Below, in pieces: positions 6,940 to 53,019 of a stretch of DNA of 64,000 nt. The first letter of the stretch is position 1, and each line of letters begins with the position of its first letter. A program made the position numbers and the translations under genes. Source of the stretch: Ginglymostoma cirratum (taxonomy: Eukaryota); assembly GCA_024137785.1 (NCBI GenBank), contig JAHRHZ010000002.1, positions 6,266,451 to 6,330,450 on the forward strand, written 5' to 3'. Below the pieces are notes generated by a model. That model saw nothing but the letters and a program-made list of their open reading frames with translations, searched no databases and had not been told where the DNA came from.

Positions 6940-7826
6940 TTAGCATTTTTGTATTCTTTGATTATATTGAAATGTAATCATATACTTTACTTCATTTCTG
7001 AACTTGGTCTGTGCCATTGCATAAATAAACGTGTTGGTGCAAGAACTGAAAAGTTGCAGCATGTATCCAGTGTGTTTCACAATTGTGAAAGGGTCATTAT
7101 TATCAGTTTGGTAAAACTGGTTCTCTGTAAATTGTACACAGGCATGACAGATTGAAATTGCCATCCACAGACAAATAAAACTTCCAGAAATAGAAAGCAG
7201 TAGGTATGATGGATTTCCTGCGATTTTCCAACTCCGAGTCTTTGATACCTTCCCTGAAGTTTCTCCTTACCCTGCTACTCATTACAATATGCTGAATGGT
7301 CAGAGCATTGAAAAGAGAAATAAAGAAAAACGCAGCAAATGGGGTTAAAATGGTATCAAGACACAAGTAAGCCTTCCAAACGGGCAAAATATAGAAATCA
7401 GATTTTACAACACAGATCCATGCCATGTTATCAATCGAGTTTCCAGGCTGCTTTACAAAGTAAGATGGCACGTTTTGTACAGCACTAAGACCACATACAA
7501 TGGCTATAACAACAGTTGCAGTTTTCTCTGTACAGTATTTGACTCTCAACTTTTGGCAGCAGATGGATACAGATCGATCAAAGCTGAAAGCAACTGTTAA
7601 CCAAACGGAGAAATCAATGGAAATAAAAGTGAAGACAAAAGTAAGACGACAAATGGAAGTATAATCCAAAAACAATTTTGGAAAAAAGATCTCTTTAAGA
7701 ATGTGCATCATTACTTCAAATATTAAAACCAGGAGATCTGCTGCTGCCTTGACAACAGGTAGCATGCAATACATCTGGAGAGACCACAATTTCCACGGGA
7801 AAGAATTACAATTGATAATATATTAG
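6940..7826 (-). pseudogene. GPR139/GPR142-like class A GPCR pseudogene, exon 2 (TM1-TM7)
   Basis: cttacag|CT acceptor. Motifs: ANILSIVILSRGNCGLSRCI, AAADLLV, SVWLTVAFSFDRSVSICCQKL, FNALTIQHI, ENRRKSI, SSCTNTFIY. There is a 1-nt deletion at 7748/7749 and a 1-nt insertion at 7203/7204; stop at 6940. Confidence 0.9.
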
Positions 7827-19950: not shown

Positions 19951-20350
19951 NNNNNNNNNNNNNNNNNNNNNNNNNNNNNNNNNNNNNNNNNNNNNNNNNN
20001 NNNNNNNNNNNNNNNNNNNNNNNNNNNNNNNNNNNNNNNNNNNNNNNNNNNNNNNNNNNNNNNNNNNNNNNNNNNNNNNNNNNNNNNNNNNNNNNNNNNN
20101 NNNNNNNNNNNNNNNNNNNNNNNNNNNNNNNNNNNNNNNNNNNNNNNNNNNNNNNNNNNNNNNNNNNNNNNNNNNNNNNNNNNNNNNNNNNNNNNNNNNN
20201 NNNNNNNNNNNNNNNNNNNNNNNNNNNNNNNNNNNNNNNNNNNNNNNNNNNNNNNNNNNNNNNNNNNNNNNNNNNNNNNNNNNNNNNNNNNNNNNNNNNN
20301 NNNNNNNNNNNNNNNNNNNNNNNNNNNNNNNNNNNNNNNNNNNNNNNNNN
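19951..20350. other. Assembly gap (400 N)
   Basis: Run of N. Confidence 1.
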
Positions 20351-22614: not shown

Positions 22615-25600
22615 AGATAGCAATGTGACTCTAATTTTATCCTTAATGAGATGCTGAGAGACAATTTGGTATGTAGGATTAATGATGTAACCATGCAAAC
22701 ACGCTTATTAGCTGAATCCCAACTGGACTACTAACAGGCACTACTGGATTTATCATTGGAAAATGGGGCAAGTGGAGCATATGATGTGCAGGGTATTCCA
22801 ATGGAAGTGGACTCCTTGTTAGTCTGACCCAGCGTGAGGAATACCACTTGAGTAACAGCCTCACTCAGGACATATCCTGAACAGGGGGACCCTAGGTCAG
22901 CCCACAGCAAACCCCTAAACAAATCCCAGCCTTGGCCAAATGGTTAAATTTTTCTTCTAGATCGTGGTTGGCAAACTGTTGTAGTTGTTGCTGTTATGTA
23001 GACTTGATACAGCAAAATAGCCTCCCTCAACATAAACTGAGAAAGAGAACTCATAGGCCGGTATGCAGGAGAATGCACACCATGGAAAGGCCAACTACGT
23101 CTGATTTGGAACAGTTAAATTGCTTAGCAATTTAAATGGGTCTAAATTAGAACCAATCAAAATAAACACCTGGTTAAATGCTCACCCAGTTCTAATGGAG
23201 ATTGATTCTGGTATGGCCATTTCAGTGATTGTAAAACCAGTTTATAACAAAACTGGACTCCAAACCTTAAGTTTGTGTCAGACCTCGGCCATACCGTGGA
23301 ACATGTATAGATTAAGGGTACAACTTTGGTTCCAGTCTCATACGAAGAAGCAGCTGGTTCAGGTACCACTGACTGTCGTAAAAAGCTCAGGTCCAAGCTT
23401 GATGGAGAAAAATTGGTTGAAAAAGATTCACCTAGATTGGATCAACATTTTTCAACTATAAAATAGTTCCTTGAGTGAAGTCCTACCTGGAAGGTTTTCA
23501 GGACGGTCTAGGGACTATCAAAGGAGTCAAGGCCATCTTGTATGTTGACCAGGAAGCAATTTCACAATTCTGCAAAGCCCACTCAGAAGGCTGGAAAGTG
23601 AAGGAATCATCAAACCAGTCCAGTCTGAAGAACGGTCAGCATTAGTTGTACCGATTGTGATCCTCAACAGGTCAGTTCACCTTTGTGGGAATTTTGAACA
23701 AATGGTAAACTGCTTTTCACAGCTGGATAAATACCCAGTTCTTTGCATAGAGGATTTGTATGCAAAGCTGTCAGGGTGGCTGTCTTTCATGAAGCTGCAC
23801 ATGAGCCACATGTACTTGCAATTGAGGTTAGATGAGGATTCCCAAAAGATTGTTACAATTCATACCCAGAAGGGTTTGTACCAATATATGGCGCTGCCTT
23901 TTGAGGTATTGTCAGCTTGTGCAACTTTTCGGCGGACGATAAAAAACATTTTTAAAGGTCTATCCGAGGTCGCTATTTATCCAATAACGGGGAAGATCAA
24001 TAAGGAGAATTTATAGAGAACTTGGATATAGTCCTCAGGTGTTTTTCTGAGGTGAGTGTACACTCTAATAGGGAAAAAAAACATATGTTCCAGGCACCCC
24101 AAGTGCCTCAGGCTACAGAGTCGACAAGGCCAGGTTATACCCATTGGAAAATAAAAAAATAAGGATGATCAAAGATGCCCCAGCTCCCATCTTAGTACCA
24201 GAGATTAGGTCTTTCCTTGAGCTGGTAAATTATTATGGAAACTTGACACTTAACCTGGCACTTTCACTTCAACTCTTAAGAAAGAGACAGCCTTGGAAAT
24301 TGTTGGGTAACCAAGCCATAGCTTTCAGGGAAGTGAAGAAACAGCTATCATTCCATAAGATGTTGGCACACTGTGATCCGAAGCAAGATCTGGTATTGAC
24401 ATGTGATACCTCTCCATACAGCAGCAGGATAGATGCAGAACGTAAATATACTCAGATAGAGAAGGAAGGTTTGGTGGTCAAATTACGAGTCATCAAGTTC
24501 CACAAATACCTTTATGGTTGTAAATTTTTAACAATAGCAGACCACAAACCCTGCTAGATCTATGTAAAGAGGTTGTACCACCTATAACTTCAGTCCGAAT
24601 TCACCTGTGGGCTCTTATGCTAAATGTATATAATTAAAAGTTGGAACACCATCAGGGAGGCCAAGCAGCAAATGTGGATGCATTGAGCCACCTCCCTCTG
24701 GCGGATGTACCACTGGTGCTACTTCCACTGGAATAGTCCACAATATTTTTCAATTTTCTGGATACACTTCCAGTTACAGCGGACAATTTGAGATTTTGGA
24801 CACAAAAAGAACTGGTCCTGGCAAAACTGAAATAACCGGTGGTGATGAGAGAATCCAAAGGGCCATCACAACCAGAACTGAAACCTCTGTTCCTTGGAGA
24901 GACCAGATCATAATAGAGGATGGTATATAATTGTGAACAGCAAGAACGATTGTCGTGAGTATTGGTTGCTGCCAGATTGTGTCTGAACATCACAAGGATT
25001 ATCCAGGGATTTCCAAAATGACGATATCGTTGAGACTCTCTGTCTCGTGGCCAGGATTGGATGCAGACATAGCAGTATCAGCGAGGCAGTATCCAGAGTG
25101 TCAGCAAGGACAAAACCCACTGCCAGCAGCTTCCCCACATTTGTGAGAACGGCTGGATAGGCCCTGGACTTGGTCCCACATCGACTATGCTGGTTATTTC
25201 ATTGTCTCATTGTTCTTAGTCAATGTGGATGTCCACTCAAAATGGTTGGAAGTGCACATAGTTCATTCGTCAAAAATGGGAGCGATGATAGAAAAACCAT
25301 GCATATTTTGCAATACATGGAATACCAGAAGTGTTGATCAAAGATAACAGGCTGTCATGTACCAGCAGTGAACCTCAGCATTTCTTAAAATTGAATGGTA
25401 TTTTCCATGAGGAAAGCTCCATACCATTCATCATCAAATGGTCTGGCTAAAAAGGCAGTCCAAACTTTTGAGGCAGACTTAAATTAACAGTCTATTGCTT
25501 TACTAGATATCAAACTGCCCTGTTTCCTAATTGATTTTAGGACTGCACTAATGCAACTATAATGATAGCTCCAGCAGAGTTGCTAATGGGGACAAGACTC

Positions 25601-27099: not shown

Positions 27100-27484
27100 T
27101 CTTGACATGGATCTCGTCTTGTGATGCTTTGTCGCTAAAGATAACTTCAGGGCACACATGTGGTGAATGTGGGTCTCCAGTGTTACTAAGGAAAAAGTTC
27201 TGGGCTGTTAACTTCATTGCAAATTTCACTGCAACAAATGATCTAGGTCTTGCAACATCACAAGCTCACGAATACTCAGTCCACTTCAGCAATTTCTTAT
27301 TCAGATATTGCTCAACCAAGCTTTACCAATCAATGGGAATGGGAATCTCTCGGAATTTAATCTGTCCTGTTAACTTGTGTGTTTTGCAACTGGAAAGCTG
27401 CCTTTTCTTCACTGACAGTATCAAGTTTCCATTTGAGCTCTGCATTTTCTGATCTCAACTCACGTATCTCAGCATTGCCCTGCT

Positions 27485-27515
<31 letters not shown>

Positions 27516-28525
27516 TTCACATGCTAAGTTTGTGCGAAAAGTCAAATTCCTTTCAGCCGTTTTCTTACAGACTTCTTGACCGACTAACAGATAATCTGGT
27601 TTGCTGGAACTTGAAATATCACAAGCTTCTCAATACTCTGTCCACTTCGGAAATTTCTTATTCAAGTTTTTCTTAAAAAAGCTCTCCCATTCACATTTAT
27701 TGTCTGCCATGATTTCAAAGCTAAGTTCCAATGCCAAATTTAATAGCACAAAAATTTAAATGTTATGATTAAATCGAAAAATCCTTGCTTCTACCCACAC
27801 TGTCAAATCCTGGCTGTCATGTGGGGCAGTTTCTCTCTTACTCAGGCTCAGGCTGTATTTCTGAAAATAAAAGACTGGTAGGTTCCACTTCGGAGCAACA
27901 TAAAGTCACCTCTTATCAAAGATGCCTCCATCCAGAGGCATCAATTATTGTGGAAAAATTGGCACAAGTTACCTTTAGGTTCAGCTACTTAAGAATTCAC
28001 ACAAACAAATACTGAAACAATGATTTTAAAACTTTATTGCATGTAGCAACCAAAATTCAACCCCCTCAAGTAAACAAGTTAAGTCTCACAACTCAACTTA
28101 CTTATTAACTGATTAACAGTTGAATTTAGCTACAATTCCAACCAACAGAGCCTGTTTCTGGGTGTGCCTTGAGTTTTGAAGCGAGCAGTGTTGCTATCCA
28201 AAATGCTGCTAATGAAGGGCTCTGGCGTTGGATTCTTGTACAGAGTTTTGCCCTTCAGTACATGACGTGCTTTAACTAACAGTTGCCCTTGTGGCATAAA
28301 GCAGCTATTTATCAAGCAGTTGTTAACAGTATTGTTCATGTAGCTTCAATGCCACCTACTCCCATAAGTGGCTAATTGCTTTCAATTCCTGTATAACTTT
28401 GCCCTTGTCCTTTAAGAACCTATTCCAGACAGTTATTACTACTTCCTTCTGTGTTTAATAGTTTATCTTTGCTAATTCTTTCAATCCATAACTAGCTACT
28501 GGGTTCTGAAGTTTGTAATATCACA
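27100..28525 (-). mobile_element. Probable LTR (27815-28525) plus gag-like 5' remnant of an unclassified LTR element
   Basis: TGTGA...ACA termini on the minus strand with an internal AATAAA. It is followed by a broken ORF MADNKCEWESFFKK...LQQGNAEIRELRSENAELKWKL with coiled-coil character. Confidence 0.45.
27487..27514. repeat. (CA)n microsatellite
   Basis: Directly visible. Confidence 0.95.
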
Positions 28526-30398: not shown

Positions 30399-32429
30399 TA
30401 CCCTGCTCCTTGTACTAACCAGTAATGAGCTCCTTGTCCTTCTATAACATACGTAATCCTATCACAATCTTGTGCACCTCTATTAAAGCCCTCCTCAGTC
30501 TCCACTGCTCCAAAGAGGAAATAGCCCACCTTCTCAAATTTAAACTTGCGGATAAAGCCTTTCATCCCTACAACCATTCTTGCAAATTTCCTCTGCAATC
30601 TCAAAGACCCTGAGTTACTTTGTGGAAAGGTGATCTGGAAGCAATATTACAGTTGTGACATATGAATTGGAGCAGGGGTAGACCACTCTGCCCATTGTGG
30701 CTGCTCCGCCACTCACTAAGCTAGTGACTGATCCAACTGCAACCACAAATTCATATTCCTGCCTACCAATCAAAACATTTCACTCTCTCATTTAGTGAGA
30801 ATCTACCTATCTGCATACCCCTGCCTTAAAAATATTCACAGACTCAACTTCAAACTCCAGGATCCTATTATGAGTACCTGAGAGTTCCAAAGGCTTATAA
30901 TCCTCAAAAGGAAAGAACAGCCTAATCTGTTTTTAATTGAGTGACCACTAGTTTTCTTTTTACAGAAAACCTCAACTTCTAGATTCTCCCTGAAGAAACA
31001 TTTGCTCTACATCTACCCTGTCAAGACCTCTCAGGGTTCTATGTTTCAATCAAGTGAACTAATCACATTTTATAAAGATTTAGTTAGCATAGATTCTCTG
31101 CAATATCTATATTTACGACAACCAAGTTTCCACATGCCTTGCTCACCACTCTCAGTCTTGCATGTTAATGTCAAGAATCAAAATGTATGTGTTTCCAGGT
31201 CTGCCATCCTCAGAATTAGTGCTCAGAATTATGCCATTACATTTACGTTTTCTCTTTGTCTCTTTTTCCAATCGTGTCAACTCAGACTTCTCTGCATTAC
31301 ATTCCAAATGCCACTTGTCTAGCCATTAGCTACTCTATGCCCCATTGCAGTTAGTTCGTGTAATTCTTATTGCATTTATCACTTCTCCAAAATTAGTATC
31401 GGTGGCAAATTTTTAAATTTCAACTTGCATTATCATATTCAAGTTATTTATATAGGTCACAAAAAAAGTGACGGTGGAGTTACTGACCCTTAGGGAGCAG
31501 CACTATCACCCTCAAGTCTGAAAAATAACCATTAAGAATGAGTCAATGTTTTCTGAACTGAAAATAATTTTCTATCCAAGCTGACACCAGCCTTCCTATT
31601 CCACTAGTCTAAATTTTGTTAAACAGCCCTTTATGTCGTACTTTTTCAAGCGTTTCTTAAAATTCTTTCCATCCTTTTCCCTTCACCAAATTTAACTGTT
31701 TTTTCAACGGAATATTGAATTGAAATGGTCAGTGATTATCTGTGTTTTACTCATCAATGCCGGCTTTCCTTAATGAAGTCAAACCTCAGCAAATCCTTGT
31801 TTTTATTTTCCCATTCACACAATCTTCAAACAAGCTGTACCTTCAGTCATTTGCTGTAAGCTGTTGTTTAAGTCACCCTTGGCAAATCTGCAGAAGCAAA
31901 ATAATGTCAGTTAGAATGGGAGATAACCCATTAACAGAGAATGAGAACAAAGCAAGTGTGTTTGAATGTAGAGTATGAAATAAATGCAGCAGATCAGGAG
32001 ATAGAAATAAACTTTTGAAGCCTACAATAATCTTTTTAAAAAAAAAAGGATAGGCTTATGCACTAAGTACAAACCGTTAGTGGTCACCATTTTAAAATAT
32101 AAGTAACAACCATAACCTGATATTTCATTTTAAGTTATATGTAGTTGGGTTTACTGAATGAACTAACAATACAACAAGATACAACACAACCAGTCAAAAC
32201 ATTTTAGAACCATCAAATTCATTGCCGTCAGCATCTGATACACAGGTGATAAAATGCATTCGGAGTTATTTTCAGCTATGACATCACTGCAATGTCCGGT
32301 AACAGGAATTTCATGTGCTACCCACAATACGTCTCAACAATACCTAGGCAGAAACACTATATGATGAACAACCATCTACTGTTCGTCTTCTGGGCTCGGA
32401 GAACTTTTCCACCTTCTCAGCAGAATTCC

Positions 32430-34501: not shown

Positions 34502-34901
34502 NNNNNNNNNNNNNNNNNNNNNNNNNNNNNNNNNNNNNNNNNNNNNNNNNNNNNNNNNNNNNNNNNNNNNNNNNNNNNNNNNNNNNNNNNNNNNNNNNNN
34601 NNNNNNNNNNNNNNNNNNNNNNNNNNNNNNNNNNNNNNNNNNNNNNNNNNNNNNNNNNNNNNNNNNNNNNNNNNNNNNNNNNNNNNNNNNNNNNNNNNNN
34701 NNNNNNNNNNNNNNNNNNNNNNNNNNNNNNNNNNNNNNNNNNNNNNNNNNNNNNNNNNNNNNNNNNNNNNNNNNNNNNNNNNNNNNNNNNNNNNNNNNNN
34801 NNNNNNNNNNNNNNNNNNNNNNNNNNNNNNNNNNNNNNNNNNNNNNNNNNNNNNNNNNNNNNNNNNNNNNNNNNNNNNNNNNNNNNNNNNNNNNNNNNNN
34901 N
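34502..34901. other. Assembly gap (400 N)
   Basis: Run of N. Confidence 1.
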
Positions 34902-40290: not shown

Positions 40291-40880
40291 AGTTTTCAAA
40301 AAACAGAATGTGATGGAAATCTGGGATTCACTGCCAAAAAGGGTAGAAGATGCAGGAACCATCAAGACATTTAAGAACTCTTTAATGCAACAAGCCAAGT
40401 GCTGGAAAACAGGATTAGAACAGATATTTATTTGGTGACTGGCACAGGCAAAGTGGGCCAAAGGGACTCTTTCCACATTGTAAAAACTCTCAGCATGAAG
40501 TAAGCAAAACGGGTCTTTCTGGAGTGAAACAAACATTGAGAAACTAATACAAATATTGCATTTTCTCACTGAAAAGGCTGGAGGCAGGTGACGGTTTGGC
40601 TTATACACCGAAAATGCACAAAAGCACGATTTTTGGTACTGTACAAAACAGGGTTATCCTGTATGCCACAATCCAAGGTGCTCACAACAGTGTCAAATAA
40701 GGTACATATAATTTCAAACCTCAGATCTGACCCACCACATTTACCTTTCCAAGACCCATTCAAATGCTGATCAGAGTGCAGAAAACATACAATGACCAGA
40801 CAGTAAGAATGAAAATTCTACTGGACATAGAGTGGGTGTGGGTCTATCACCTCACCTCAACATTCTATCAATTTTTTACC

Positions 40881-40996
40881 TCACCGCAGCCTTTTCCATC
40901 TGATCACTGCAATTATCCCGATAATCACCAATGCAGCAACGACCGACAGCGTTATAATTCTTGCAGTGAAGCTTCTGCTTCTGTCCTCCACTGTTT
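40881..40996 (-). CDS. MHC class I connecting peptide/transmembrane exon with in-exon stop
   Basis: tttttcag|AA acceptor. Encodes ETVEDRSRSFTARIITLSVVAALVIIGIIAVIRWKRLR then TGA (40883-40881): a 19-aa hydrophobic helix followed by a basic stop-transfer. Confidence 0.9.
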
Positions 40997-43900
40997 CTGA
41001 AAAATATTTGAATAATAAGGGAGGTCACTATGTTCCTGAAATCATATTCAAATTCTGTCTTGTTGAAGGATGATTCTAACCAAACCTGCCTGTCCAGAAA
41101 GTGATGCACATACATACCCCACTGATAGAGTTTGGCCTCTGACAGGCTGCTGTGTTCAATTCGACAGGAGTATTGATCCTCATCCCCAGCACTGATTTCA
41201 ATCTCTTTCTGGATCTGAAACGTCCCATCATGGTTCGGCCGAACCCCTGAGGATTGTGTCTTAGTCATGACCTCTCCATTCCTTAGCCAGGTCACTACGA
41301 TTTCTACAGGATAAAATCCACTGACCAGGCACGAGAGAGTGAGAGACTTGTCCTGATGACGGAGTTCACTCTTAGAGATGAACACTTCAGGCTCAACCAT
41401 GATGGGAAAGGGTGAAAACACAAACCATGTATGAAAGGTAATGAGCAGAACTAGGAGAAGTTTCATAGATCTGTACGTGAACAAAATGAAAACATACCTT
41501 TCCTTTCAAAATATTCTTTTCCAACCTCCAAATCCAACAGCAATTGCTCCAGAAATACTTCTTCCAGATGTGTCTTCCAATACTTGGTCCAGGATGCATC
41601 AGAATTCCATTTCTCAGTTGTCACTAATGCACGGTGGCTGGTTGCAATCCATCTCATTCTCTCTGGCTCTAAAATAATATAGTCTTTTCCGTCATACCCA
41701 AAACGCATTGATATCTTAACGGAGCCATCTTCAGTTATTTCAGCACAACTTATCCATTGAAACAGGTGAATTCCTTTCAGTGATGAACAAAGGGATCAAA
41801 AACCAACATTTAATGATACATCACATGCTGTCTGAACAGAGACAACAGGCATCTAATTTCAGGTAGAAATGGGAGCTTAGAGTCAGACCCTGTATCAGAA
41901 AAGGAAGAGGATTCAGTTGAAAATGTATCCCAATTGTTGCTACTGTGAATTCAGGCTGAAAGTCTGAAATTTCTAATCATTTGAACTTGAGTGGTCAGAA
42001 GTCAAACAAAATGGTTATTGGGAAATTACGCATGCAACCAGGATTCAGTGGTCTTAGAAAGGGCCAGTAAACTAATGACAAGTCTTAACTCCCATACATT
42101 AATAGCAAACAACAAATTAATTCCCAAGAAGCTAATAACTTGAATTAATAGTCAACATATTAATCCCAAAATGCTTATATGTGTTGGTTTCAGCAAATTT
42201 ACAACAGGAGTTAACTGCCAGTCAGTGGTTAATTCCCAGATGTTGAAAATAAAGCATTAATTTACAACTTACTAATAATGGGAGATAATTCCTGTTGGTA
42301 GCTGGAAATTAATTCCTACCATGTTAACAACACAAGTCCCCAACATACAAACAGAAGTTTATTCCCAGCACACTATGGGTGGTTTTAATATGCAACACAC
42401 CAACAATGAGAGGTAACTCAAATATCTGAAAGTTAGAAGTTATTCCCAACTGCTGAAGAATATATTTAATTTAAAGTCACTACAGACAATGTGATGAAAT
42501 CTCTCGCTATTTCCACCTTTTCCTTTGCACTAAGCAAGCCAGCAAACTATGGCAATTTCTATTGATAGACAGTTCCAAGTGTTGCTAGGTGCCAACAAAA
42601 GGGAGGGGCTTATCATAGGACTGCAACAGATTACTCAGCACAAAGAATAGCAGTTTAAAATTTTCAGTACCTGACTGTAAGGTCAGCGTGAAGGCGACAG
42701 AGCAGACGGCATGTTAGGAGTCCTGATTTTTAGCTGCCCTACAGCAAAGGCAACTGAACTACGGGATTTCCATGTAGTTGACATATGGAGTTAAGTTCCA
42801 AGAGCAGTTGGGTGTCTGTGTTGTTGGAACCACGGCCAAATTCTCAAAGACATTAGGCAACTAGGTGTTGCCATCAGGGCTTAGGAAAAGTGATGGGAGT
42901 TCACAAGAAACCAGCTGTCACCAATAGGTCAGTACGGCTGAGAGTGATCATTGAAAAACCACCAAGAGTAATTGCTTGATGCAGCTCAGCAAGATGGGAG
43001 AGCTCGGGAAAAACACAAAGAAAAATTCAGCTTGGTAAAGCCTGCCTGAGTTGTGGCAGTGAATCAGTGAATCAGAAACTGCAGTGCTGTTTGCAGAGTC
43101 TGGGGCAGCATGGACCCAGGCAGGAGGGTAACCAACTCTAACAAGAGCAGTCATTGAGGCAATCCATGACAGACCACAAGGCATAGAATCAGAAATAGTC
43201 AATTGGCCCTAAAAGACTGCTTTGCCATTTGATCACTGCTGCTGATAAGTGGCTCAAGAGTGGATTTAAAGACCAGACTAGACCAGCAAAAGCAAAGAAC
43301 TGTAAACCCTTGTGAAGTTCAATGAGATTTATTGACTGACTGCATGTAACCTTAACCTCTGGAGGATTTGCTGAGAAAGCTGTAGGATCTGCCTTGATTG
43401 CATTTGACGCATAATTAAAATCATTTGAGAAGCTGGTGATGAGCTGCCTTTTTGATCCCTGCAATCCTGGTGCTGTAGGTACACCCACAGTGCCGGAGGA
43501 ATTCCAGGATTTTTGACTCAGCAACAGAAAAAGATACGCTGATATTTTTCCAAGTCAGGATGGTGGCTGGCTTGTAGGAGAATTTCCAAGGTGGCAGTGT
43601 TCTGCTGTATCTCTTGCCCTCATCCTTCGAGTCGGAAGTGATTACGGATTTTGAAGGTGCTATCTGAAGATCTTGGAATGCTTGTTCAGAGATCAGCAGA
43701 TGGCAGGACTGATTAATACGGTAGTTAAAAAGGCATATATGATGCTTGCCTTGACTAGTCATGGCACAGATTAGAAGAACAAGGCAGGCATGTTGGAGCA
43801 GGACTGAACATTGGTTAGGCCACAGCTGAAGCACTATGCACTCTTCTGATCACCATCTTCCATGTCATGGGGTTTCATTGTATCCCTTGACCTTCTAGAT

Positions 43901-46900: not shown

Positions 46901-49900
46901 ACAAAAAGAAGGACAAATCCAACCCAGCCAATTACTGATTCATCAGTCTACTCTCAAATCATCAGTAAAGTGACGGAAGGTGTCATCAACAAGTGCTATC
47001 GAGCAGCAGGTGTCCAGTTTGGGTTCTGCCAGGGGCACTCAGCTCCTGACCTCATTACAGCCTTGGTTCAAATATGGACAAAAGAGCTGAATTCCAGAGG
47101 TGAGGTGAGAATGACAACCCTTGACATCAAGGCTGCATTCGACCAAGCGTAGCATCAAGGAGCCCTAGCAAAACCGCAATCAATGGCTATCAGGGTGCAA
47201 ACTCTCCGGTGGTTGGAGTCATACCTGACACATAGGAAGATGATCGTGGTTGTTAGAGGTTAATCATCTCAGCTCCAAATCATCTTGGCAAGATTTCCTC
47301 AGGTAGTCTCCTTGGCCCAACCATTTTCAGCTGCTTCAATGACTTTCCATCCATCGTAAGGTCAGAAGTGGTGATGTTTGCTGATGACTGCACAATGTTA
47401 AGCAATAATCACGACTCCTCAGATACTGAAGCAGTCCACATTCAAATGCAACAAGATTTGAACAATATCCAAGCTTGGGCTGAAATGAGGCATGTGACAT
47501 TCACACCACACAAATGCCAGGCCATGACTATCACCAATGTGAGACAATCTAACCGCTGTCCCTTGACATTCAATGGTGTTACCATCACTGAATCCCCACT
47601 ATCAATATCCCAGGGGTTATCATTAGCCAGAAACTAAATTAGACTCGCCACATAAACACAGTGGCTACAAGAGCAGGTCAGAAGCTAGGAATACTGCAGC
47701 GAGTAACTCAGCTCCTGACTTCTCAAAGCCTGTCCACCATTTACAAGGCACAAAAGACTTGTGCGAATACTCCCGACTTGCCTGGGGTGGTGGACAATTA
47801 AACAATGACTGCAGCCCCAACAACACTCAAAAAGCTTGACACCATCCAGGACAAGGCAGTCCTTTCGATTGGCACGACATCCACTCCCTCCACCATCGAC
47901 ACTCAGTAGCAGCAATATGTACTATCTACAAAATGCACTGCAGAAATTCACCAAAGATCCTCAGAGAGCACCTTCCAAACCCATTTCCATCTAGAAGGAA
48001 AAGGGCAGCAGACATATGGGAACACCACCACCTTCAAGTTCCCTTCCAAGACACTCATCATCCTGACTTGGAAATATATCACTGTTCCTTCACTGTCACT
48101 GGGTCAAAATCCTGGAATTCCCTCCCTAATGGCATTGCGGGGTCGATCTACAGCCGGTGGACTGCAACAGTTCAAGAAGGCAGCTCAGCACTAGCTTCTC
48201 AAGGGCAACTAGGGACCGACAAGAAATGTTGGCCGGCTAGCAACGTCCACATCCCACAAATGGTTAAAAAAAAAAGGCCTCATAGGATGTATTCCTCTTG
48301 GATAGTCCATTTAGCGAGTGGAACTTACTCCCCCAGCCCCAATTGTTTGGAGACTGCTCATAAAAGCATCTCCTCTCTCTGACTGGGCCTGCTTCTGTTC
48401 CTCTTTCTCAGTGTTTTGCTGGAGGTCATAAACCTCAAGTCAGCAAACTCCTAAGCAATTATCTCCCTAGTAGCATGCATTTTGTTAGAAGCCACAAAAC
48501 TCCATGCAAGTGCTGGTTTTTACTGTGTTAAAAAGGATGGTGACGTTCAAAAAAGGTCTGATATTCTCAGACTTAAATCTACATTCCCTTGAGAACAAAG
48601 TCTCAAAAATAATATACGAACATTCATAGCACAAGGTTTTTGAAATAGCTCATGATTTAAAAAAAGTTCAGAAGATGACGGTGGGAATGACTGATCCTAC
48701 TCAGAAACTCTATTCCTTACAGAAAGCTTCAACCCAGTATCCCAGCGCGATGGCTCAGTGGTTAACACTGTGCCAGGAACCCAAGTTCCATTCCACCATG
48801 GGTCAAATTGTTTGTGTGGAGTTTACACATTCTCTCCGTGTCTACACGGGTTTCCTCCAGGTGCTCCAAAGAATTGCAGGTTAGGTAGCTTGCCTGTGCT
48901 AAATTGCCCAAAGTGTTTACTTGGCTTAGCCATGGGAAATGCAGGGTTACAGGGACAGAAAAGGGGGTGGGTCTGGGCAGGATGCTCTTTGGAAGATCGG
49001 TGTGGGGATTTCGTGTGGTCAGTAAGTTTGCAAATGATACCCAAATTGCAGATGTAGTTAGTACAACAGGATCCTGATCAGATGGGCCAATGCGCCGAGT
49101 GGCATATGGAGTTTAAATTTAGATAAATGTGAGATGTTGCATTTTGGAAAGGCAAGTCACAGCAAGACTTATATACTTAATGATAAGGTCATGGGGAGCG
49201 TTGCTGAACAAAAAGACTTTGCAGGTTCATAGTTCCTTGAAAAATGGAGTCACAGGTAGATAGGATAGTGAAGGCGGCATTTGGTACGCTTGCCTTTATT
49301 GGTCAGTGCATTGGGTATAGGGAGTCGCATTGCAGCTGTTCAGGACATTGGTTAGGCCACCATTAGAATACTGCATGTAATTCTGGTCTCCATGCTATAG
49401 GAAGGATGTTGTGAAACTTGAAAGGGTTCAGAAAAGATTTACAAGGATGCTGCCAGGGACAGAGTGAGAGCTACAGGGAGAGACTGAATAGGCTGGGGCT
49501 ATTTTCCCTGGAGCGTCAGAGGCTGAGGGGTAACTTCATAGAGGTTCATAAAATTATGAGGGACATAGATATGTTAAGTAGACAAGGTCTTTTTCCTGGG
49601 GTGGGGGAGTCCCTAGAGAGTAGAGGCTGAAGGAGAGAGGGGAAAGATGTAAACAGGACCTAAGGGGCATCTTTTTCACACAGAGGGTGGTGGTATGTAT
49701 GGAATGAGCTGCCAGAGGAAGTGGAGGAGGCTGGTACAATTACAACATTTAAGAGGCATCTGGATATGTGTACGAATAGGAAGGGTTTAGAGGGATAAGT
49801 GCCAAATTCTGGCAAATAGGACTAGATTAATTCAGGGTATCTAGTTGGCATAGGTGAGTTGGATCAAACGGTCTGTTTCCGTGCTGAACATCCCTACGAC

Positions 49901-52900
49901 CCTAAATCATTTGGTTGCTGGGTCATTAAGTTATGTTATTGGACAGTGAATGCAGATATACAGTGTATGGAGTAGATTATTGAAAGGTAACATTTTAAGC
50001 AATGCAGCCCAAATTAAGTCTAAGGAAATTGCTAATGCTGCGAGCTTCAGGTTTGTAGTTGACCAGAAACATTTAATAAAAAAAATTAAAATTCCAAACA
50101 AACTAGCTGGGGTAAACACTTACCAACATGAATTTACAAACAGGAACAGCAGTAGGCCATTAGGCCCCTTTACCCTTACCTGACAATTAATAAGGTGGTG
50201 GTTGATCTGATTACAATCTTAAATCCATGCTTACCCATGACAACATTTCATTCTCAATCCATATAAATGCCTTAGGTGTCTTAAAAATATTCAAGGACTC
50301 TGCTTCCACCACCTCATCAGGAACGGAGAGTTCCAAAACTCTCGACTTCACGATAAAAAAGAGTTTCTTCTCATCTCAGTTTCAAATGTGACCACTTATT
50401 TACTAACAGTAAGCCCTAATTCTGAGATCTGCCATAAGAAGTCTGCAGTATAAATGTTGTTGACTGTATTGTGCATTGTATCTCACTGACATTGATTCAA
50501 AAGGACAGTCAACTTGATCTTACCAGATGTCTGGTTCATCCCCTTCATTATTGTATGGAGATTCTCCTTTGCTATAGTTGAATGTGAATTTGCAATATCG
50601 GTGACAACGTTCCAAGTTTCCATGCCAAAAGAGTCTTCCATGAACTTCTGCCTGGGAATCATTCGCTGGATCTTTGTATCGTGATAATTAAGTTGAATTC
50701 CTTTCACAATTGCAATGTTCATCACGTCAGGAAAGTCATCAATGCCAGAGACTGCCATGTACAGCACTGTCAATGAATTAGAGTCTATAAAACAAATATA
50801 AAAAGGGGAAAGAGGCAGATTATCAGCCATGCACACTGACGACCATCAACGGTTTACCGACAGTGCCAATCTCCAATAATCAACCACTTCCTTGCACTGT
50901 CAGAATTCTGTCTGATATTAGAAACAAAATCATCTCAAACTGGGTCAGAATTAGACGACTGCAGTCTCTCAGAACAAGGGGAAAGCATGGAAACAGAGTG
51001 ACAAAGAAACCCAATTGATGTAGATGTGGGGTGGGTATTGGGTCGTAAATAGAAGATCTCAAATTTACAGTTATTACTTCAGATATTCTCACCTCTCTAA
51101 TTCAAAGATAATCTGGGACACCCTGGATCTGTGACTAACCTAGAACAGCAATGAGTTAAAGCTAACTTGAGGAAACCTTTGGAGAAAGACAGTGAGGTGA
51201 TCCTTCTCGTGAGGGAACATTTGGAGTTAGGAATTCAGGATAATCCAAGGGCAGGTCTGTGGTTTATCACCATAACCAGGAAGGGAACTGTGTCAGTGAA
51301 TCTGGATTGTTGGATCTCCACTATCCTTCAGAGCTGTTTAACTTTTTATGCATAGGCAGTCAAATACTGCTGGTGTGAGATAATCTGTCCTATTCAATCG
51401 TGAGGGCATCACTTCTGAACCTGGGGTGGGTTAAACACAAACTATCCTTCTCTCAGCAGTGTTTAGAAGACTTGAGACCAGGAATGAAGAAGTTGTTCCG
51501 TTTCTCTCAAATGATATTGTCATGGGCCAGACCAGAGTTCCTCAAAATATTTAACAAGGTAGTGCAAACTCTAACTTTTTCTTATTTTAAAAAGGTATAT
51601 GTGAAGTGTGTTCCAGATGCAATGCAATTGGTCAAATTACTGGATATTAAGCAAAACACAATTTGTTTACATACTATAATTAAAATACCAACAAAAGAAA
51701 GAGGAATTTAGAATAACTTAACTATTGGGGAACTTAACTGAACAATAGCTACAGTAACTATTGCTAATTAATTGTTCCAATACAGTAACATCCCATCAAC
51801 ACACCCCTTGGGGAAAAAGGGAAGTTCGGACACACAGATTCTTATATGCTGTTCTCCAAGCCAGGAGGAAAAACATTCAGTGAAATTTCAGAGAAAGTAG
51901 CAACTAGGAATCATTCACTGAAGCTCCCAACTTTGCTGAGACCCCAAACAGCTTCTGACTGCTGAAAAAAAAACAGAAATCCTGATCTGAGAGAGTTGGC
52001 CACACCCATTCAGGCTGTTTTAAAAACAAACCGAAGGCTTCACAAGTGTTTTACTCTCATGGTTCTGGTATACTGCTCCACACCACTACCTTTACAATTT
52101 CACTTTAAAGAAAAAGGAAAAAAAAAACCTTTTAAAGTGATAGCATCATCACAATATGAAAATTAAAACTGTCCATCTGAACCATCTTCAGCGTGCTCTG
52201 ACCTTCTCTGATCTCAGGGTTTCTACACCCTGCTGTTTGGAGACCTGGACACAAAGCCCATCACAGTCTTCCGTAAGACCATGAGAAACAGGAACAGGAG
52301 TAGACCAATTGACCCCTCAAGTTGCTCCAACATTCAACAGGATCCTGGCTGATCTGACATTCTTTATGTCCAATTTCTTGCCATTTCCTATAACCCCTGA
52401 TTTTCCAAAGAAATCAGGATTCTATCAATCGCAGTCTTAAAGATAAAATAACTCTACCCACCGCAGCTCTCTGTGGCAAGGAATTCCAGAGACTCACAAC
52501 ACTCAGAAGAAATGCTTTCTCAGCTCAACCCTAAATTGGAAGCCTTTATCCTGAGACAGACATCCTTAGACAACACCTTCCAAATCTATGACCATTTCCA
52601 TTCCTATCTGCAAGTTCCCTTCCAAATCACTCACAATTCTCACTTGGAAATACGCTGGCGTTCATTCACTGCTGCTGGGTCAAAATGCCAGATTCCCCTC
52701 TCTAACAGCATTGTGTCTACCCACTACAATACAAGGAGACAGGTCATCACCACCTTCTCAAGGGTAAGTACGTATAGGCAATAAATGCTGCCCAGTCAAT
52801 GATGCCCACATCCCATGGGAGAATAAAAATAACTATGTCCTGTGCTCCTAAACTCTCCCATGAGGGGAATCATCCTCTCAGGTCTGTTTCTAATGGACAG

Positions 52901-53019
52901 AGTGCACGCACGCAATTGAGTGACTGCAATAGAAAGAGAGGAATTGGAAGGCTGTTTTTGTACTTACCAGCATAGACCCATGGAAAACACAGGGAGATGG
53001 AGAAAACGATCAGCAACAT
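40881..53019 (-). CDS. Non-classical MHC class I heavy chain gene (5 coding exons, 984 nt, 327 aa); possibly a defective allele or young pseudogene because of the alpha3 acceptor lesion
   Basis: Exons of 52+261+276+279+116 nt are joined by phase-1 introns and encode leader, alpha1, alpha2, Ig-C1 alpha3 and TM with no internal stop or frameshift. All donors are GT; acceptors are AG except before alpha3 (GG). The shark lineage (UBA/UCA/UDA/UEA/UFA etc.) cannot be assigned without a phylogeny. Confidence 0.93.
41118..41396 (-). CDS. MHC class I alpha3 (Ig C1) exon
   Basis: Encodes VEPEVFIS...LSCLVSGFYPVEIVVTWLRNG...RPNHDGTFQIQKEI...YSCRIEHSSL...YQW, 279 nt, with G|GTATGT donor. The expected acceptor reads catgg rather than catag. 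Confidence 0.95.
41498..41773 (-). CDS. MHC class I alpha2 exon
   Basis: aag|GA acceptor and G|GTATGT donor, 276 nt. Encodes GIHLFQWISCAEITEDGSVKISMRFGYDGKDYI...TTEKWN...HLEEVFLEQLLLDLEVGKEYFERK, with H93, Q96, YDGKDY and T143/K146/W147. Confidence 0.95.
43424..44175 (-). mobile_element. Fragments of the same CR1/L2-group LINE 3' end, with a CR1 piece in between
   Basis: Reverse-complement similarity to 47740-48200. Confidence 0.65.
44520..44712 (-). mobile_element. Second tRNA-derived SINE family
   Basis: Minus-strand head GGCTCAGTTG..GGATG...GATGCCAACAG, short body. Confidence 0.5.
45076..48275 (+). mobile_element. CR1/L2-group LINE (EN + RT, frameshifted) with a tRNA-derived SINE-like 5' head and A-tail
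   Basis: A box TGACCTAGTGG (45085-45095) and B box GGTTCGAATCC (45148-45158). EN VPKLGEQFHRLVRQQP and DFNVHHQEWL; RT QFGFCQGHSAPD, LDIKAAFD and MFADDCT. A-run at about 48266-48275. Confidence 0.85.
48742..49030 (+). mobile_element. HE1-type SINE (degenerate)
   Basis: tggctcagtggttaacactg head and tgtgtggagtttacacattctc core. Confidence 0.8.
49065..49900 (+). mobile_element. CR1 LINE 3' end
   Basis: SYRERLNRLGLFSLERQRLRG and CR1 tail. Confidence 0.9.
50524..50784 (-). CDS. MHC class I alpha1 exon
   Basis: ttttatag|AC acceptor and G|GTAAGA donor, 261 nt. Encodes DSNSLTVLYMAVSGIDDFPDV...RMIPRQKFM...ETW...KENLHTIMKGMNQTSG, with conserved W60 and the N86 glycosylation site NQT. Confidence 0.93.
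51374..52153 (-). mobile_element. Solo LTR in MHC intron 1, same family as 4480-5324
   Basis: TGTGA...TCACA termini; shared blocks ttccagatgcaa..attggtcaaa and acaaaagaaaga.gaatt. Confidence 0.7.
52968..53019 (-). CDS. MHC class I leader (signal peptide) exon, coding part
   Basis: ATG at 53019 gives MLLIVFSISLCFPWVYA, then G|GTAAGT (phase-1 donor). Hydrophobic core ending V-Y-A, a signal peptidase-type site. Phase matches the alpha1 exon. Confidence 0.88.

Follow-up and report, generated by a model that had tools for sequence, protein, structure and literature searches.

The MHC class I gene carried by the window, the 64,000-nucleotide stretch of nurse shark (Ginglymostoma cirratum) DNA analyzed here, is very probably a transcribed class Ib gene of the UEA type that inherited the absence of the alpha2 disulfide C101-C164 from its family, acquired A101 and C100 afterwards, and has, ahead of alpha3, a GG splice acceptor that likely segregates. 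The alpha2 exon lies on the minus strand at 41498..41773 (276 nt, bounded by AG and GT) and translates without stops from 41773 to 41498 as GIHLFQWISCAE…LEEVFLEQLL. In the numbering set by alignment to solved class I chains and to Pfam MHC_I, whose profile positions 91-177 correspond to exon residues 1-87, the exon encodes Cys 100 (TGT, 41747-41745), Ala 101 (GCT, 41744-41742), and Phe 164 (TTT, 41555-41553), all on the minus strand, and the C101-C164 disulfide is absent. The full exon was covered by transcript contigs of runs X1, X5, and X6, and most of it (41523-41774) by a contig of run X9, each with no other letter; in run X21, 45 raw reads lay over the exon, with no other letter listed. 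The reading C100-A101…F164 made in an earlier note on this DNA is thus real, the same bases being present in the transcript contigs of four runs (X1, X5, X6, and X9). A base-call error behind the three residues was ruled out by these contigs together with the X21 reads. A shift of register, in which C100 would be the true C101, was likewise excluded: family and outgroup sequences both line up with the strand free of gaps, and residue 164 is Phe regardless.

The remaining exons were placed on the same strand. The predicted leader exon (52968..53019), with its ATG at 53019 and a signal peptide, was located by tblastn to family leaders, a GT donor, and an open frame. It is followed by an alpha1 exon (50524..50784) that has no cysteine and an N86 glycosylation site, and that matches Pfam MHC_I with an E of 4.5e-5, below the curated cut-off. 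Downstream of alpha2, the intron at 41397..41497 runs from GT to GG in the genome and in transcript contigs, the AG acceptor having been lost at 41398; the alpha3 exon (41118..41396) encodes an intact C1-set domain with both cysteines (Pfam C1-set, E 2.3e-18), and the transmembrane exon (40880..40996) ends in RWKRLR and a TGA just before the donor. Given splicing at the GG/AG site, the leader, alpha1, alpha2, alpha3, and transmembrane exons form a single open frame of 327 residues, and with these five exons, one frame, and a C1-set alpha3, the product is an MHC class I heavy chain. The only cysteines of the frame are one in the leader, that at position 100, and the alpha3 pair, so that C100 is the sole cysteine of alpha1-alpha2 and the mature chain's other two are those of alpha3. 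The alpha1-alpha2 splice joint was found among the loose ends of X1, X5, X6, X9, and X21, and the alpha3-transmembrane joint in X21, X1, X6, and X9; loose ends at 40880 map to an untranslated next exon, of which the start alone is placed (31858..31887, acceptor at 31887). Since these three joints are present in the runs, the gene is transcribed and spliced. The TGA at 40881-40883 leaves a tail of 6 residues after the transmembrane segment; without it, the frame would continue for about 7 residues into the exon at 31887, an arrangement found in P0002 and other relatives. Window positions 19951-20350 and 34502-34901 are 400-base stretches of N, the second inside the intron after the transmembrane exon.

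The absence of the disulfide was traced through relatives of the alpha2 exon. A search of the same genome gave 16 matches, comprising the window itself, seven close paralogs with 48-62% identity at 4.77-5.14 Mb of contig C2, and eight distant loci. A protein database search with the horn shark relative P0001 as query found the family in at least 13 shark species among the best 120 of 124 matches. The 126 alpha2 sequences assembled besides the window fell into 14 that were dropped as truncated or mis-spliced, 20 outgroup sequences, and 92 family sequences; the last consist of 85 database entries (13 shark species, among the matches listed), which include isoforms and are therefore not independent, and the seven same-genome paralogs. 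C101 was found in none of the 92 family sequences (matches listed plus paralogs), whereas G100, C101, and C164 were all kept in 20 of 20 outgroup sequences. In one of the dropped sequences, P0076, a cysteine in column 101 arises only from alpha1 sequence aligned there. In a quick tree, the window gene nested beside P0025 within an 84-sequence family clade with an SH-aLRT of 100; its end branch is long (0.42), and its best identity is 65%. The contrast between family and outgroup, together with this nesting, indicates that the disulfide was likely lost in the family ancestor and inherited from it, with A101 and C100 arising later as single changes.

The earlier note had read the Ala/Phe pair as a compensatory C101A/C164F swap made in this copy. 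A small residue facing a large one is structurally plausible, and the A/F pair recurs in P0007 (Hemiscyllium), but a recent double change of this kind is refuted by the family and is extremely improbable. Besides the absence of C101 from every member, residue 101 is V in 86 sequences, with A, I, and L in two each, and the V/F and V/L combinations of 101 and 164 are common (23 and 29 sequences, respectively). Position 164 holds ten different residues (L in 32, F in 24, Y in 10, C in 9, S in 6, G in 5, D in 3, and one each of H, T, and W); set against a nearly constant V101, this variability leaves a strict compensatory pair unsupported. A101 is one base from V101. Residue 100 is S in 35 sequences, T in 33, I in 13, and N in 7, with four single occurrences of others, and never G or C; codons 100-101 read TGT GCT in the window versus AGT GTT in paralog L003, one base apart each. 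The path was therefore likely V101>A and S/T100>C, rather than C101>A and G100>C. Of the two outcomes that the note had foreseen, conserved A/F/C residues or paralogs retaining C101 and C164, neither was found; a third applies, in which both cysteines of the pair were lost family-wide. What appears particular to this copy is only the lone free cysteine and a broken splice site that is likely polymorphic. A search of openly available literature for a printed statement of the family's disulfide loss found none; the UEA paper or its supplement may well contain one.

An AlphaFold model of P0007, which carries the same A101/F164 pair, has a complete class I fold with a mean pLDDT of 80 and mostly above 90 in the groove, and its best PDB match is the shark class I structure 6LUP. 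The model would speak only for compatibility of the fold with A101/F164, as models of this kind readily reproduce a class I fold. The alpha2 helix may rest on the sheet by hydrophobic packing with no covalent link, and the chain, which keeps N86, Q96, and D122, would pair with beta2-microglobulin as a surface glycoprotein. The groove probably does not hold a peptide anchored in the classical way; a non-classical ligand is likely because Y59, R84, Y159, and Y171 are replaced.

Structures of class I chains place residue 100 under the platform, facing away from the groove, which makes a groove adduct less likely than a dimer for a putative thiol function at this position. Free cysteines elsewhere in class I chains, C42 of HLA-G and C67 of HLA-B27, give disulfide-linked homodimers or covalent adducts. 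We considered whether C100 is likewise a selected functional free thiol of the ortholog group, forming homodimers or a covalent adduct. It is the sole cysteine of the groove domains, and DNA contigs of a related shark, organism B (X12 and X19), which cover the region in single copy with about 96% identity, appear to keep the C100 and F164 codons unchanged, as deduced from a tally of differences by kind of change. In that tally, all A>N differences are listed, eight other rows stand outside the listing, and the unlisted C>N changes are explained by the X6/X9 alpha3 differences; the A101 codon is touched at most by one unplaced G>T. The presence of C100 in none of the 92 family sequences and its seeming retention in the ortholog make selection on it possible, and an extra C100 is described for cavefish S-lineage genes in PMC4364491. 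Against this, not one of the 92 other family sequences has C100, and in the ortholog only about 6 of the 92 alpha2 residues have changed, so that any three residues would be expected to stay the same by chance and a C100 kept in one ortholog is weak evidence. Odd cysteines, moreover, are scattered over 11 positions across the family, position 100 tolerating S, T, I, N, K, A, F, and Y; unpaired alpha2 cysteines are frequent among the 92 sequences, 19 of which have an odd number, and nine have C164. Among the paralogs, L007 carries a cysteine at 99 and L008 a C164 that has no partner. A selected thiol is thus quite improbable, and C100 is most likely a substitution that this variable position of the strand tolerates. 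Two word-limited searches of the protein database, one with 2 matches among 47 candidates and the other covering the best 120 of 124 matches, gave no ortholog protein with C100/A101.

The alpha3 acceptor at 41397-41398 on the minus strand is GG in place of AG. AG is present in organism B and in six of the seven paralogs, these being the six with the junction in view, the seventh having a long insertion. The runs differed in their use of the site. X6 had the spliced form only, at a depth of 81.7 and with 208 letters on the shorter side, the intron having a depth of 0. X5 had the retained form only, in one 892-nt contig already spliced from alpha1 to alpha2, and X1 had both, the spliced form at 72.7 (its shorter side just 29 letters long) and the retained form at 42.6; reads of X21 cover the alpha2-alpha3 intron, with no joint listed. 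Retention brings in a stop in frame at 41465-41463, after 207 residues and 345 nt before the next junction. The simplest reading is that GG is likely a segregating loss-of-splicing (null) allele produced by A>G, and that AG alleles also likely exist in organism A, where they would give the full 327-residue membrane protein. A search of the literature for an AG-to-GG class I null allele found none. Alternatively, GG might be fixed and a non-canonical GT-GG intron be used variably, yielding a membrane form and a 207-residue secreted form with alpha1-alpha2 only. The joint does lie exactly at GG in X1 and X6, organism A has no AG among the variants listed, and no other letter occurs in those contigs of X1 and X5 that contain the intron. 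However, the all, none, or mixed pattern over the runs fits genotypes, spliced contigs cannot reveal the acceptor letter, and one other letter in the X6 alpha3 indicates that X6 carries another allele; the stop 345 nt before the next junction also makes the retained form a likely target of nonsense-mediated decay. Variable use of a fixed GG is accordingly quite unlikely. More doubtful still is a compound reading, in which a conserved, specialized UEA offshoot gained C100 for covalent dimers after the disulfide was lost from the lineage and switches, by way of an alpha3 acceptor that is non-canonical or polymorphic, between membrane and secreted alpha1-alpha2-only forms.

A segregating null allele differs from outright decay of the gene, in which relaxed selection would account for the residues A101 and C100 as well as for the GG acceptor and early stop. 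The loss of AG in the assembly, the retention of the intron in X5 and, in part, in X1 and X21, a tail that ends at RWKRLR, the long branch, and the stops carried by paralogs L006 and L007 would suit a decaying pseudogene. We nonetheless consider decay unlikely, as every coding exon is open, X6 is fully spliced (depth and intron depth as above), and the ortholog has AG. Among the differences listed against the ortholog, 11 are nonsynonymous and 9 synonymous, for a dN/dS of 0.34 (P=0.017 against neutrality, from few changes); against the paralogs, the alpha2 dN/dS is 0.29-0.36. By these ratios, the gene is under purifying selection. The view of the earlier note that the loss is not random decay therefore holds, the gene being transcribed and spliced with a dN/dS of about 0.3-0.4. 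The in-frame stops of L006 (C2:5140545-5140802) and L007 (C2:5100331-5100603) are consistent with birth-and-death turnover. Window positions 41687-41860, which comprise groove-floor strands and the upstream intron end, are unusually conserved, with at most one difference from X19 in 174 nt versus 18 in the adjoining 323 nt.

Most likely, the gene belongs to UEA, a multicopy class Ib family of sharks, as one of its outliers. The clade in which it falls is multicopy and of class Ib, with eight loci in the genome and 84 sequences nested together in the quick tree. On C2, the paralogs at 4.77-5.14 Mb are followed by UDA (L011) at 5.63 Mb, the window at 6.31 Mb, and a ZIP-family gene at 8.03 Mb, which we infer to be slc39a7; the family is thus MHC-linked, clustered with UDA, and flanked by the putative slc39a7, although the window gene itself is separated from the paralog cluster by about 1.17 Mb and lies beyond UDA. 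The alpha2 of L011 matches that of nurse shark UDA exactly (P0112; supplement of PMC10751288). Named family matches, among those listed in the word-limited search, came from 13 shark species and from no ray or chimaera. Almeida et al. in 2021 reportedly found UEA in sharks and noted its absence from rays and chimaeras. PMC10751288 describes a multicopy UEA clustered with UDA and adjoining slc39a7, and the UDA/UEA arrangement in its section 9 agrees with the order on C2; PMC12562908 names UBA and UEA as the two expanded shark families. The label UEA had no match in the PMC10751288 supplement, and none of ten protein clusters looked up was so named; the name most likely applies on grounds of elimination, distribution, and position, set against descriptions of UEA. 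By eye, none of the paralogs L002-L008 is the nurse shark family sequence published in that supplement, which suggests copy-number variation or an unassembled locus.

Elsewhere on C2, divergent class I alpha3 exons lie between UDA and the window at 5.66, 5.91, and 5.97 Mb (L014 at 5.90 Mb) and probably belong to UFA/UGA-type genes. Within the window, positions 6943-7822 (minus) hold a rhodopsin-family GPCR remnant over two frames (Pfam 7tm_1, E 7e-10), likely a frameshifted pseudogene, and 27360-27629 (minus) a short open frame with a coiled-coil-like end and no Pfam match. Retroelement remnants were seen on the plus strand at 47257-47634, with an RVT_1 match at 47257, and at 23105-24013, with broken protease/RT-like frames by eye and no Pfam match.

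Mutation of C101-C164 in mammalian class I abolishes the interaction with TAPBPR, the disulfide being needed for folding and chaperone binding (PMC6926029). A shark-wide family lacking the bond offers a natural system in which to study a groove that has no disulfide and is perhaps more flexible. Published alignments already show the absence of the disulfide, which characterizes a known lineage and is no discovery made at this locus. What the locus adds is modest, namely an outlying gene that is expressed and has an ortholog, its free cysteine, and what is probably a splice-null allele.

Compared with known systems, the gene agrees with the UEA lineage (Almeida et al. 2021, doi 10.4049/jimmunol.2000851) in being multicopy, MHC-linked, and clustered with UDA, the named family matches listed coming from sharks, and differs from it in C100, A101, the GG alpha3 acceptor, the 6-residue tail, and its location outside the cluster. 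In the PMC10751288 supplement, a nurse shark query labelled 'Gcirratum_UCA' and dogfish UCA both lack C101/C164, whereas UAA, UBA, UDA, UFA, and UGA keep the alpha2 cysteines. The 'Gcirratum_UCA' query in that supplement resembles the window gene by eye in alpha2 and alpha3 and belongs to its family. Spiny dogfish UCA (AF515705), as given there, has V101 and V164 and shares the absence of the disulfide and a similar FQW..VE strand, but its alpha1 and alpha3 clearly differ by eye, so that it represents a related but separate lineage. The CD1-like UFA and UGA (PDB 9CH4 matches the UGA alpha1 sequence) are nonclassical and lie in the same class Ib cluster, but in the supplement they keep the alpha2 cysteines and differ in alpha1 and alpha3; by-eye comparison with its alignments sets the window gene apart from UFA, UGA, and UDA, lineages characterized as single copy with alpha2 cysteines and alpha1/alpha3 of their own. 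Classical UAA (Triakis P0115, P0118, and P0120; PDB 6LUP) has the same exon layout and predicted fold, and both keep N86, Q96, D122, T143, K146, W147, and Y7. UAA retains G100, C101, and C164 together with Y59, R84, Y159, and Y171, whereas the window gene has T59, G84, H159, and D171; with A101 and F164 in place of the disulfide and four of the eight anchors Y7, Y59, R84, T143, K146, W147, Y159, and Y171 kept, it is distinct from class Ia.
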